Below, in pieces: positions 3,151 to 29,755 of a DNA stretch of 64,000 bases. A program made the translations under genes and the position numbers. The stretch spans positions 64,001 through 128,000 of the forward strand of contig CAWELD010000004.1 in assembly GCA_963809895.1 (NCBI GenBank), in the 5' to 3' direction. The notes under the pieces are model-generated. The model saw only the letters and a program-made list of their open reading frames with translations. It was not told where the DNA came from and did no database searches. Source of the DNA: an uncultured Gemmatimonadales bacterium. GTDB lineage: Bacteria; Gemmatimonadota; Gemmatimonadetes; Longimicrobiales; Gaopeijiaceae. Within the stretch, counting starts at the first letter, position 1. Each line of letters starts with the position of its first letter.

Positions 3151-3359
3151 CACGCGCTCTCGATTGCTGGATCAGGGGTTCGGCTACCCACTCCAATGCC
3201 TTTGCCGTGCGCTCTGTTCCTGGCCGCCCCTCGTCGCCCACCTCCGCGTGTCGGGAACATCTGCCGGGCCCTCTTGCTTCGGACCTACCGAACGACCGAT
3301 CCGCCGACCCACCCCGGGTGGAACCGACGGATCCCTCACCCGCAACAGGAGGAACCGTC

Positions 3360-3803
3360 ATGTCCGGACGACTCGATCTCGGACGCGCCGTGCTCGCTGG
3401 AGTCCTCGGTACCGCCGCCATGACGCTCGTCGGCGTGTACGTGGCGCCGATCATGGGAATCCCTCGCATGAACCCCGCCGTCATGCTCGCGGGAGCCATG
3501 GGCGGCAACCTGGTTCTGGGGTGGATGGGCCACCTCATGATCGGTATCGTCCTGGCCCTCGGTTTCGCCCTGGTTGCTCCGGCGCTGCCGGGCCCGGCCG
3601 CGCTTCGTGGCGCCCTGTGGGGCCTCGCACCCTTCTTCCTGGCCCAGATCGTCGTGATGCCGATGATGGGCATGGCCGTCTTCTCCGGTTCCCTCGTGAT
3701 GGCCATGGGCAGCCTGGTCGGCCACCTGGTCTACGGCGGGGTCGTCGGAAGCATCTATGGGACGCCGGATTCGGCCGGGAGCGTGGCGCACGCGACGGCG
3801 TGA
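3360..3803 (+). CDS. Small four-TM membrane protein (DUF6789/DUF2938-like)
   Basis: AGGAGG RBS before ATG 3360; GTAAMT, GWMGHLMIG and LVGHLVYG intramembrane His motifs. Confidence 0.75.
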   Translation: MSGRLDLGRAVLAGVLGTAAMTLVGVYVAPIMGIPRMNPAVMLAGAMGGNLVLGWMGHLMIGIVLALGFALVAPALPGPAALRGALWGLAPFFLAQIVVMPMMGMAVFSGSLVMAMGSLVGHLVYGGVVGSIYGTPDSAGSVAHATA

Positions 3804-20690: not shown

Positions 20691-21818
20691 TCATCCATCG
20701 CCGCGCGACCTCCCCCCACCCGGAATCCCCGCAGGCACCGCGCAGTTCTCGATCCCCGCCAGGGTGGCCGACGCGTCGGGGAAGTACCGGGTCCGCCACC
20801 GGAGCGCCACGTTCACGAGCCCGATCAGCACGGGGACCTCGACCAGGGGGCCGATGACGGCGGCGAAGGCGGCGCCGTGCCCGATGCCGAAGGTCGCCAC
20901 CGCCACGGCGATGGCCAGCTCGAAGTTGTTCGACGCCGCCGTGAACGAGAGCGTCGTGGTCCGCCGATAGTCCGCGCCCAGCCGCCGGCTCATGAAGAAG
21001 GTCAGCGCGAACATCACCACGAAGTAGATGAGCAGCGGCACCGCCACCCGCACCACACCCACGGGTTGCTGGAGGATGGCGCGCCCCTGGATCGAGAACA
21101 TGACGACGATGGTGAACAGCAGCGCGACCAGGGTGAGCGGCCCGATGCGGGGGACGAACTCGGCGTGATACCACGCCTTCCCCTTGAGCTTCACACCCAC
21201 GAAACGCGTGGCCATGCCGGCGATGAAGGGAATCCCCAGATAGATGAAGACGCTGCGCGCGATCTCACCCATGGTCACGTCGACTTCCGTGCCCTGGAGC
21301 CCCAGCCATCCGGGCAGCACGGTGATGAACAGCCACGCGTACACACTGAAGAAGAGGACCTGGAACACGGAATTGAACGCCACCAGACCCGCCGCGTACT
21401 CCGGGTCCCCCTCGGCCAGGTCGTTCCAGACGATGACCATGGCGATGCATCGCGCCAGCCCGATGAGGATCAGGCCGATCATGTACTCGGGATACCCGCG
21501 CAGGAAGATGACCGCGAGGGCGAACATGAGGATCGGTCCGACGATCCAGTTCTGCACGAGCGAAAGCCCCAGGATCTTCCCGTCGCGGAAGACGTCGCCC
21601 AGCTCCTCGTAGCGCACCTTGGCCAGCGGCGGGTACATCATGAGGATCAGCCCCAGCGCGATGGGCAGCGACGTGGTGCCGACCTGGGTGCGCTCGCTGA
21701 GCGTGCGCACGGCGTCGGGCCACAGGTAACCCAGCGCCACCCCCAGGGCCATGGCCGCGAAGATCCAGAGGGTGAGGAAGCGATCCAGGAAGGACAGCCT
21801 CTTCGGCAGCGCACTCAT
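20691..21818 (-). CDS. acr3: ACR3-family arsenite efflux transporter
   Basis: [50 protein letters not shown]. Confidence 0.96.
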
Positions 21819-21819
21819 G

Positions 21820-22725
21820 TCACGAACAGCACGACGGGCCGCAGCAGGGGCGTTCCTCGGTCTCGACCTCGGCCGCCGCCGAGGGTGCCAGCGGCTTCCG
21901 CGCCCGCACGAAGGCCGACATGATCCGCCCCCCGACCGCTTCCGCCATGGCGTCGACGTCGAGTCCCGCCTCTTCCAGGAACGAGCGGGCGTCCTCGGGC
22001 TCGTAGACGCGGGTGGGCTCCAGACTCGGGTCCTCGAATCCCACCTCCCGCAGCAGCGTCTCGAACTCGCGCTCCTCCAGGGCGCCGGCGACGCAGCCGA
22101 CCCAGAGCTCCATGCTCCGTCGGATGCCGGCGGGAATCTCGCCCCGGACCACCACGTCCGAGACCGCGAAACGGCCACCCGGCTTCAGGACCCGGAACGC
22201 CTCGCCCAGCACCTGACGCTTGTCCGCCGAGAGGTTGATCACGCAGTTGCTGATGATCACGTCCACGCTGGCGTCCGGCAGCGGAATCGCCTCCATGTCG
22301 CCCCGCAGGAACTCCACGTTGGTCGCGCCGGCCTCCGCGGCGTTCTGCCGGGCCAGCGCCAGCATCTCGTCGGTCATGTCGAGTCCGTAGGCCTTGCCGC
22401 TCGCGCCCACGCGCCGCGCGCTCAGAAGCACGTCGATTCCGCCGCCGCTCCCCAGATCCAGGACGACCTCGCCCTCGTTCAACTCCGCGAGGGCCGTGGG
22501 ATTTCCGCAACCGAGCGACGCCAGCACCGCCTGCTCGGGCAGCGAGTCCGCCGTCACGGAGTCGTAGAGGTCCCGGGTGATGGGATCCGAGAACCCGCCG
22601 TCGGCCTTGGTGTCTCCGCATCCGCACGACGTGCCGCAGCAGGTGCCTTTGGTGCCGGCCTGGGCCCGCAGCGCCGCCTCGCCGTACTTCCGCCTCACCG
22701 TAGCCTTCAGATCATCCTGGCTCAT
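21820..22725 (-). CDS. arsM: Arsenite S-adenosylmethionine methyltransferase
   Basis: [35 protein letters not shown]; Cys-rich termini; alternative TTG start at 22746. Confidence 0.95.
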
Positions 22726-22737
22726 GCCGTTCTCCGT

Positions 22738-22753
22738 ATCAATCAATCTTGAT
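22738..22753. promoter_or_regulatory. Candidate ArsR operator before arsM
   Basis: ATCAA-TCAATC-TTGAT inverted repeat. Confidence 0.55.
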
Positions 22754-22798
22754 GTGTCACCGAAAAAGAAGACGTGCCCACGAGTTCACCGCCGAGGC

Positions 22799-23131
22799 TC
22801 ACGAGCAGCACGGACCTTCGCGAGATGCGGGATCCCGCCAACGCGGCTCGGGCGTAACCTCGCCCAGGAACGCCCGCATCTCCTCCAACGCGTCCGGCAC
22901 CAGCGAATAGTGCACCCAGCGCCCGTCACGCCGGTCCGACACCACACCCGCATCCTTGAGCTTCTTCAGATGGAACGACAGGCGCGACTGGGCCGCATCC
23001 AGCGCCCCCTGAAGCTCGCACACGCAGTGCTCCCCGTCGGAGAGGAGCTGAACGATGCGGTAACGCGTGGGCTCGGCCACGGCCTGAAAGCGCTGTAGCA
23101 GTGCCTCGTCGGCAGCGAGTGTGTTCGACAT
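22799..23131 (-). CDS. arsR: ArsR/SmtB-family repressor
   Basis: EHCVCEL, QSRLSFHLKKL, RDGRWVHYSL; C-terminal PCCS. Confidence 0.93.
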   Translation of the reverse strand: MSNTLAADEALLQRFQAVAEPTRYRIVQLLSDGEHCVCELQGALDAAQSRLSFHLKKLKDAGVVSDRRDGRWVHYSLVPDALEEMRAFLGEVTPEPRWRDPASREGPCCS

Positions 23132-23138
23132 GGAGACA

Positions 23139-23165
23139 ACATATCAACGAATGTAGATATGTCAA
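23139..23165 (-). promoter_or_regulatory. arsR promoter/operator
   Basis: ACATATC-N10-GATATGT inverted repeat overlapping TTGACA (minus strand, 23160-23165). Confidence 0.65.
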
Positions 23166-23213
23166 CGGAGGCTGCCACCGGGACGGCTGCGAAGCCGCAG
23201 GACCCCTCCCCCA

Positions 23214-23242
23214 TTGCCCGCTGCGAACCCTCGGACCACAAT
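23214..23242 (+). promoter_or_regulatory. Sigma70 promoter for the riboswitch transcript
   Basis: TTGCCC-N17-CACAAT; predicted +1 falls at about 23249, the riboswitch 5' end. Confidence 0.6.
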
Positions 23243-23248
23243 TTCGTC

Positions 23249-23299
23249 GGCGATGGAGTTCGCCCTGAACCACCGCGGCCGCGGTTGATGACTCCTACC
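23249..23299 (+). ncRNA. Fluoride riboswitch (crcB motif)
   Basis: GGCGATGGAGTTCGCC...AAC..(ACCGC/GCGGT stem)..TGATGACTCCTAC; stem GGCGA/TCGCC and pseudoknot GGAGT/ACTCC. Confidence 0.9.
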
Positions 23300-23330
23300 G
23301 GATCCTCTCCGACGCCAGGAGTCGCACGCC

Positions 23331-23744
23331 ATGTCTCTCAACGATTCCCAACGGCGGGCCGTCAGCGCGACGTTCGCGCAGGTCAACGATCTGCTCGAAG
23401 ACGTGGAGCGCCTGGCCCGCTCGGAGTCGAACGGCTTCAGCCGCGAACGCTCGGATCTGACCGCCTCCGAGGCGGAGCGCCTCACCGTCCTCACGGCACA
23501 GGTGCGCGAGCGCATGCTCGAGGCCCTCGCCAACCTCTCCATCCCCCCGCCCGAGCCCGATGGCTCGGCTCGCTGGAGCGCGCAGACCGCGTTCCTCTTC
23601 GCCGGCATCGCCCTCTCGGAGCTTCAGGGCCGCCGCCTACGGGCCTACGGTGCGCTCACCGAAGACGATGAGGAGCACGTCACGGCGCTGGCCCGGGACC
23701 TCCGCCGCCTCGTCGAGCAGGGCCAGGCGCTCCTGAGGGGGTGA
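23331..23744 (+). CDS. Uncharacterised soluble helical protein under fluoride-riboswitch control
   Basis: AGGAG RBS 23317-23321; 137 aa; no convincing TM segment or signal peptide. Confidence 0.85.
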   Translation: MSLNDSQRRAVSATFAQVNDLLEDVERLARSESNGFSRERSDLTASEAERLTVLTAQVRERMLEALANLSIPPPEPDGSARWSAQTAFLFAGIALSELQGRRLRAYGALTEDDEEHVTALARDLRRLVEQGQALLRG

Positions 23745-23795: not shown

Positions 23796-23837
23796 TTGAC
23801 GATGTCGTGATTTCGTCTATAGTGCTTTTCACGATAT
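23796..23837 (+). promoter_or_regulatory. Sigma70 promoter with overlapping candidate PadR operator
   Basis: TTGACG 23796-23801, TATAGT 23818-23823; ATGTCGTGA...TCACGATAT inverted repeat. Confidence 0.65.
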
Positions 23838-29605: not shown

Positions 29606-29678
29606 TGGTCGCTGCAGGACTCGAACCTGCGACTTCTACGATGTGAACGTAGCGCTCTACCAGCTGAGCTAAGCGACC
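29606..29678 (-). tRNA. tRNA-Val (CAC), CCA not encoded
   Basis: Acceptor GGTCGCT/AGCGACC; anticodon arm CTACG-TTCACAT-CGTAG; T-loop TTCGAGT. Confidence 0.96.
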
Positions 29679-29682
29679 CCAG

Positions 29683-29755
29683 TACCCCCACGGGGAGTCG
29701 AACCCCGGTCTCCGCGCTGAGAACGCGATATCCTGGACCACTAGACGATGGGGGC
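29683..29755 (-). tRNA. tRNA-Glu (CTC), CCA not encoded
   Basis: Acceptor GCCCCCA/TGGGGGT; anticodon loop TTCTCAG; T-arm CGGGG-TTCGACT-CCCCG. Confidence 0.95.

Follow-up and report, generated by a model that had tools for sequence, protein, structure and literature searches.

A fluoride riboswitch ahead of a free-standing N-terminal domain of dynamin-like GTPases, a likely part of the bacterial fluoride response

A riboswitch-controlled gene and its neighbourhood

The window (the whole stretch of DNA analysed, 64,000 nucleotides from an uncultured Gemmatimonadales bacterium) carries a cassette in which a fluoride riboswitch stands ahead of a gene for a 137-aa protein, here called X (Table 1). 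The earlier note on this DNA had read a complete crcB-motif aptamer at this site and proposed a covariance-model search as a check; the Rfam model gave a match above its cut-off, covering model positions 1-64. The promoter suggested in the same note, TTGCCC-N17-CACAAT, holds up in part: both boxes and the 17-nt spacer are present, but they score 8/12, below the threshold of the promoter scanner. Their placement is nevertheless typical, since a -10 box of at least 4/6 lies 4-9 nt before the aptamer in 42 of 85 related riboswitches, versus 3 of 85 in a control window further upstream. One RNA run (word share 0.05) showed no reads over the riboswitch or over most of the X gene and is uninformative on transcription. 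The ATG of the X gene follows 27 nt beyond the end of the Rfam match.

X has a pI of about 5 and, as proposed, no convincing transmembrane helix, because its highest 19-residue Kyte-Doolittle mean is 0.81. Given this value and the lack of a Pfam match to PF02537 or PF00654, X is not a Fluc/CrcB or CLC-F exporter. The separate promoter claimed for the next gene was also found, ahead of a PadR gene and a MacB/FtsX permease. A monocistronic unit is therefore plausible, but no intrinsic terminator was found after the ORF, so that read-through is possible.

On the other side, back to back with the fluoride cassette, lies an arsenic-resistance-type operon (window 20691-23165, reverse strand) encoding ArsR, a methyltransferase, a short ORF and an Acr3/SBF transporter; the short ORF, judged by its motif, presumably resembles ArsC. 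This arsR/methyltransferase/Acr3-type operon is kept in most genus relatives, up to about window position 23170, where DNA similarity within the genus stops. The riboswitch-X cassette was matched in none of 19 genus relatives, X was not found in the 69 family genomes searched, and a riboswitch above the cut-off was found in 0 of 36. Since similarity ends at this border and neither the riboswitch nor X was found in these relatives, the cassette looks like an accessory insertion. A protein named Gemmatimonadaceae clusters with P0046, which groups with loci from the class of this genome and makes a Gemmatimonadota host likely. To give a background rate, 60 relatives of this genome were scored for the riboswitch; 7 exceeded the cut-off, mostly ahead of crcB. 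Further along the window, two adjoining tRNA genes lie at 29606-29755 on the reverse strand.

Table 1. Features of the riboswitch-X cassette and its borders (window coordinates)
Feature	Position	Strand	Basis
Divergent promoter-like site of arsR operon, 5' border of cassette	23138..23165	-	Promoter scan; genus DNA similarity ends at about 23170
Putative -35 box TTGCCC	23214..23219	+	Sequence; TTG commonest at about the same distance in 85 related leaders
Putative -10 box CACAAT	23237..23242	+	6 nt before aptamer GGCG at 23249
Fluoride riboswitch aptamer (crcB motif, RF01734)	23240..23304	+	55.2 bits (gathering score 34), E 1.4e-12; sole match in the 5.3-Mb genome
3' strand of aptamer pseudoknot, GACTCCT, also the predicted anti-Shine-Dalgarno	23290..23296	+	Predicted pairing with 23317-23323
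AGGAGTC containing Shine-Dalgarno, predicted sequestered without fluoride	23317..23323	+	AGGAG ends 9 nt before ATG
Gene for X, 137 aa, stand-alone N-terminal domain of fluoride-linked dynamin-like GTPase DynA	23331..23744	+	55% identity to P0009 residues 1-137
Promoter-like site of next unit (padR and ABC permease), 3' border	23796..23823	+	TTGACG-16-TATAGT, 10/12; Pfam PadR, MacB_PCD, FtsX

The leader between aptamer and gene suggests control at the level of translation. Pairing of GACTCCT with AGGAGTC is predicted with a probability of 0.93-1.0, and the Shine-Dalgarno sequence is unpaired at only 0-0.06 in the free fold. The full 7-bp match recurs in 8 of 14 stand-alone leaders, and compensatory pairs occur in L044/L047/L071 and in L067; the pairs seen in relatives are GGCTCCT/AGGAGCC and AACTCCT/AGGAGTT. 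By this predicted pairing, together with the compensatory changes in relatives, the 5' leader holds an expression platform that overlaps the aptamer. No U-tract follows this aptamer, although one is present in 6 of the 14 stand-alone relatives, and this copy is therefore predicted to be a translational ON switch. Without fluoride, the 3' strand GACUCCU would pair with AGGAGUC and hide the ribosome-binding site; with fluoride bound, the same strand would be held in the pseudoknot, allowing translation. A mimic of the bound state speaks against this prediction: with the pseudoknot strands blocked in silico, the Shine-Dalgarno sequence was not clearly freed but for the most part found other pairing partners (unpaired probability 0.02-0.6), in a fold weaker by about 9 kcal/mol. 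Among Acidobacteriota aptamers, many read GGCGTTGG or GGTGTTGG instead of GGCGATGG.

The earlier note had also stated that no fluoride exporter is present in the window. None adjoins the X gene, but the genome does encode crcB and DUF190 elsewhere (C3:1120817-1121155); at this second locus (L003, G000:C3:1120369-1121266) crcB is followed by DUF190 beside a tRNA gene, without an Rfam fluoride riboswitch. The genome's only riboswitch thus serves X, not crcB. The two CLC genes of the genome are likewise without a riboswitch and, on their motifs, do not look like CLC-F. The cassette shares with known crcB-motif regulons (crcB/Fluc, CLC-F, Na+/H+ antiporter, enolase, pyrophosphatase, formate hydrogenlyase) a full aptamer above the cut-off and a predicted ON switch, and the operons of its relatives carry crcB, DUF190, Na+/H+ exchanger and Usp genes; genes of this sort are listed in the available part of the review PMC11139923. 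It differs in that the gene controlled here encodes an unnamed soluble domain.

Identity of X and its genomic settings

X had been described as an uncharacterised protein, and it is indeed unnamed, with no family in Pfam and none in NCBIfam when 73 members were searched. That description overlooked that X is an N-terminal domain shared with a family of dynamin-like GTPases, here in detached form. X corresponds to the N-terminal domain of about 140 aa in dynamin-like GTPases of about 620-700 aa (DynA), with up to 55% identity, a value reached against residues 1-137 of P0009, a 625-aa Dynamin_N protein (E 1.2e-33). Its homology to residues 1-140 is full-length, and D42, R59, Y106 and G107 are retained. 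A full scan found 428 relatives at E <=0.001 (representatives at 50% clustering). In the best 150 of these, 53 are at least 580 aa long, all with a P-loop, and 26 are of intermediate length, 16 of them having a P-loop. The other 71 do not exceed 200 aa, and some of these short ones may be contig-end fragments. Every one of the 17 longer relatives scanned was a Dynamin_N protein, with the X query aligning to the first ~137 residues; P0112, which looks frameshifted, carries the match internally.

The fused relatives resemble the mitofusin/Fzo1/IniA/BDLP class (PF00350) in their G1/G3/G4 motifs and in the fold of the GTPase portion. A model of a fused protein matches the dynamin-like protein (DLP) fold from residue ~153, with Z scores of 22-26 against Fzo1, MFN1 and IniA (Fzo1: Z 26.4, rmsd 3.2, 310 aligned). 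Because the DLP fold begins only at this point, X is an added domain. The window protein, in contrast to that class, consists of this added N-terminal domain only and lacks GTPase, neck and trunk: the G-domain motifs (P-loop, DxxG, xKxD; PF00350) are absent from its 137 residues, and no remnant of them was found downstream of the gene.

Other searches added little. The best PDB sequence match with profile A1 had E 0.15, the ESM Atlas gave no family for X (BssR at 0.83 serves as a lead only), and a genome scan with P0086 alone found no match. A dedicated search for longer X homologues returned none, although fused forms exist according to the full scan. No X was found in viral contigs, plasmids gave G-domain matches only (0 covering X), and a metagenome scan gave two X loci. 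In L021 and L024, X seemed at first to be fused at its C-terminal end, but the extra parts proved to be off-frame ORF extensions over a Na+/H+ exchanger gene.

Within the phylum, the X domain occurs in 31 of 400 genomes at 33 places, 2 fused and 31 stand-alone, the latter in 30 genomes and including two identical copies in one genome. Across these 31 stand-alone loci (up to ~10 kb each, gene labels checked on examples by Pfam), a riboswitch lies directly upstream of X in 14 and within the locus in 22, leaving 9 without one nearby. Of the genes looked for, DUF190 occurs in 19 loci, crcB in 15, a Na+/H+ exchanger in 8 and a dynamin in 6, and 8 loci lack every one of these features. At the level of genomes, 23 of the 31 that bear X have an Rfam riboswitch and 8 have no Rfam match at all. 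In one genus the arrangement departs from the expected operon: in L040 (4018-4419) and L041 (1154-1555), DUF190 is inverted between the riboswitch (or antiporter) and X-crcB and so breaks the operon.

A similar picture holds for the fused form. In the best 80 of at least 543 fused loci (Planctomycetota, Acidobacteriota, Verrucomicrobiota and others), a riboswitch-like element, defined by an nhmmer model at >=18 bits (best score on reversed sequence 12.3), occurs in 73. In 67 of the loci it lies upstream at a distance of up to 5 kb, and in 46 it immediately precedes the fused gene. When 16 fused loci were tested with Rfam, 12 were confirmed; nhmmer had called 14 of the same 16. The recurring operon reads riboswitch, X-DynA, crcB, DUF190 genes and DynB, a second dynamin, and stand-alone X takes its first slot. 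Many of these loci (L072-L151) contain 2-4 riboswitch-like elements in 16 kb, fluoride islands with further unannotated genes. In L043 a fluoride riboswitch (3309-3377, reverse strand) sits just past X-DynA and heads a membrane operon of the NADHdh family (formate hydrogenlyase-like). In 301 Acidobacteriota genomes drawn separately, the X domain turned up in 22, in fused, split, stand-alone and tandem forms; for 20 of their 27 loci, picked by protein alone, Rfam found the riboswitch in 12. In L176 and L177 (G480, G507), a tandem pair of diverged stand-alone X genes stands ahead of crcB-DUF190, with FG in place of YG in the second copy.

The earlier note had proposed that this protein belongs to the fluoride response and had suggested the neighbours of its homologues as a check. 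Taken with the covariance match, the computational results agree with that proposal: a riboswitch or crcB/DUF190/Na+/H+ antiporter neighbours mark 23 of the 31 stand-alone loci, next to the riboswitch-like elements of the fused set. On these comparisons of sequence, X likely has a working role in the bacterial fluoride response that has so far gone undescribed, and we regard its identity and its place in the fluoride regulon, taken jointly, as very highly probable.

Not every X gene fits this setting. In one genus (g66, 4 genomes) X is conserved, with a dN/dS of 0.11-0.31, in loci without a riboswitch, crcB or DUF190, and no riboswitch match was found anywhere in the four genomes, which counts against a strictly fluoride-specific role. 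The g66 loci L061, L063, L064 and L065 have TATCAT a few bases before the ATG of X, which suggests constitutive leaderless expression. X could accordingly be pictured as a general factor of envelope or protein stress, recruited into the fluoride regulon, whose amphipathic helical bundle would act on membranes or on enzymes that are inhibited. Its persistence in g66 outside any fluoride context and the strong amphipathy of helices 1 and 5 (moment ~1.5) fit such a role; yet amphipathy is expected of any helical bundle, the ESCRT-type hairpin matches of the model cover only ~60 residues at Z <=8.1 and are non-specific, and the link to the riboswitch is far tighter than a general stress gene needs. 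We consider this explanation quite improbable.

Selection, partner dynamins and conserved residues

If X is merely what is left after loss of the GTPase, it might be decaying, or might persist only as a leader whose translation links crcB to the riboswitch. X-crcB overlaps are indeed common, the cassette was not found in the 19 genus relatives, and in a quick tree of 201 rows the window X falls in a clade of 8 short proteins (support 98) that is sister to a group with fused members (96). However, stand-alone X genes of unrelated lineages stop at the domain boundary, and a separate clade with support 99 unites 28 other stand-alone rows. In 14 distinct stand-alone pairs dN/dS is 0.11-0.31, an estimate that covers only pairs above 50% identity, includes the window gene in no pair and can be biased by GC-rich codon use; by this measure, stand-alone X is under purifying selection, as shown for its relatives. 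Neither the window nor L066, moreover, has a same-strand fluoride gene after X to couple. A mere remnant thus seems to us a poor explanation, with little probability. For the stand-alone rows verified in genomes, the tree requires 5 or more label changes, of which one is an artefact of a frameshifted gene; it leaves out about two thirds of the fused loci, has few columns and counts changes regardless of direction. Read in this way, X has been detached or fused repeatedly, as shown for its relatives.

The closest precedent for an extra domain on a bacterial dynamin comes from Campylobacter, where the N-terminal assembly domain of Cj-DLP1 captures the first helix of DLP2, according to the accessible portion of Liu, Noel and Low 2018 (PMC6104087). 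By analogy, X could be an assembly domain that joins DynA to its partner dynamin DynB, with lone copies serving as split halves, decoys or leftovers. The two domains occupy the same position on one member of a DLP pair and are of similar size (119 aa in Cj-DLP1, as given in that portion of the paper, vs ~140 aa in X), and 5OWV (Cj-DLP1: PDB 5OWV/5OXF) is the best solved sequence relative of the fused family (E 1.4e-24). A second dynamin was counted in 51 of the 80 fused loci, by a rough count, and split pairs of an X gene and a dynamin gene exist (L156, L161). On the other hand, no sequence similarity between the Cj-DLP1 assembly domain and X was detected, the match to 5OWV_A begins only at its residue 146, and the same portion of PMC6104087 calls the Cj domain Campylobacter-specific. 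A whole-chain structural alignment of the fused model (191-624) with 5OWV_A (161-677) spans a range that does not exclude a shared N-terminal fold.

DynB was found in 12 of 401 genomes, under a strict cut-off with 3 candidates scored per genome: in 8 of the 31 that bear X (7 of the 30 with stand-alone X) and in 4 of 369 other genomes. This enrichment, in which kin are not independent, counts against an X that acts on its own. DynB was not found in 23 of the 30 stand-alone genomes, and X therefore mostly persists where no partner dynamin could be detected. In the window's genome, HMM and tblastn searches turned up neither DynA nor DynB, and hence no partner DLP with an extra N-terminal helix and linker as in the Cj-DLP1 system. 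Where DynB does occur, the stretch before the G-domain is just ~30-40 residues long in 6 of 7 aligned proteins, so that these have no room for a docking helix and linker as in Cj-DLP2 (P-loop K74), and a profile-to-profile comparison of X with DynB gave a probability of 0.5%. X also stands alone in most carriers of the phylum, tied to fluoride riboswitches, unlike the Cj-DLP1 domain. We therefore think it unlikely that X is such an assembly domain. Separate X genes lie directly ahead of an X-less dynamin gene in L170 and L171 as well as in the two split loci named above, with a riboswitch between the two genes in L170 and L171. In L055, L067 and L182, an X-less DynB lies directly behind a fluoride riboswitch of its own, often convergent with an X-crcB operon.

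The structure model of X (pLDDT 93.9) is all-helical, its five helices forming two hairpins. No Foldseek match reached E <=0.001, the weak ferritin-like rows having TM <=0.39 and rmsd ~17-18, and VIA structure searches returned single hairpins only, at best Z 8.1 over 60 residues with rmsd 2.2. 5OWV was not among the matches listed for the X model, a result that does not by itself rule out its fold. Across 230 sequences, the best-kept positions are L3, N4, Q/H7, R9, L22, D42, R59, E/D97, L103, R104, Y106 and G107. Covariation is weak (best z 5.4, ~205 effective sequences) and places helix 1 antiparallel to helices 3-4 (S6-A105, A10-L103, F15-A94), which suggests that the N-terminal motif and the LRxYG motif are neighbours.

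Such a set of residues could bind either a protein or a small molecule. In the latter case, X would bind a fluoride-metal, phosphate or nucleotide species, gating the GTPase when fused and acting as a sensor or buffer when alone. The conserved residues that are polar or charged (N4, Q/H7, R9, E/D97, R104, Y106, G107) are predicted neighbours, and a ligand of this kind requires no protein partner, which fits both the missing dynamin and the unlinked crcB. On the other hand, G107 is the only invariant residue of the set in the 230 sequences, either Q or H stands at position 7, a conserved metal cluster of His/Cys/Asp/Glu is lacking, and a stoichiometric sink would presumably be a weak defence against a permeant anion. 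A small-ligand domain is in our estimate a minority prospect, on the unlikely side.

A proposed binding adaptor in the fluoride response

We favour an autonomous adaptor, because DynB lacks the extra helix and is usually missing. That stand-alone X has a function of its own is probable, judging from its sequence relatives; that this function is to bind another protein is a tentative suggestion, which we hold at somewhat less than even. X is a soluble domain that fills one operon slot in two forms, joined to the front of a mitofusin/IniA-like DLP core or by itself. In this proposal, the seven polar or charged residues listed above would make up a single patch for binding a conserved partner in the cell, and in fused proteins the patch would bring the GTPase to that partner. 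Alone, X would be a fluoride-induced binding adaptor, for which the Fluc (CrcB)-DUF190 export module is the most probable partner. This module leads because of its conserved adjacency to X and the X-crcB stop/start overlaps of several loci, for example L044, L045, L047, L049 and L056. As X and crcB are unlinked in the window's genome and crcB is common in any case (11 of 14 control genomes), their co-occurrence is weak evidence of contact, and Fluc/DUF190 as the specific partner is an improbable choice taken singly.

A bolder version of the adaptor proposal, which we rate as conceivable but a little more doubtful than binding to a protein as such, is that fluoride defence has an undescribed arm whose core effector is X, a new domain family that works independently of dynamin and binds Fluc-DUF190 or a fluoride-derived ligand, with the dynamin as an optional attachment. 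X would then be a soluble, fluoride-specific accessory factor of a kind absent from the literature searched, since it has been repeatedly detached, is retained under its own riboswitch and is, here, the only riboswitch-controlled gene of the genome.

Early gene lists for the crcB-motif riboswitch reportedly may include a dynamin-related GTPase COG, so that this link may already have been published within a table. Our literature searches found nothing on the X domain and no paper joining the fluoride riboswitch with dynamin. The words 'dynamin', 'GTPase' and 'DUF190' do not occur in the available main text of PMC11139923. Neither the stand-alone domain nor a fluoride-dynamin link appears in the accessible parts of that review, PMC7266159, PMC2864571 or bioRxiv 10.64898/2026.10.21.760802, while the gene tables of the early surveys (Baker 2012, Weinberg 2010) may bear on both; the available Weinberg 2010 supplementary files gave no match. 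The riboswitch class itself is known, and X as a riboswitch-controlled free-standing domain is new relative to the literature searched.

The accessible text of PMC11139923 points to further determinants of fluoride tolerance, and the present family supplies a concrete case in which evolution isolated a 15-kDa soluble domain from a fluoride-switched dynamin. A domain isolated in this way should be expressible, crystallisable and testable on its own. Exporters are the main explanation of fluoride resistance, yet bacteria differ widely in their tolerance, and the engineered defluorination of organofluorines is limited by fluoride toxicity. The stand-alone form makes the question of what a dynamin-like GTPase does in fluoride operons directly testable, and it gives an unnamed family (the 428 representatives) a physiological context.
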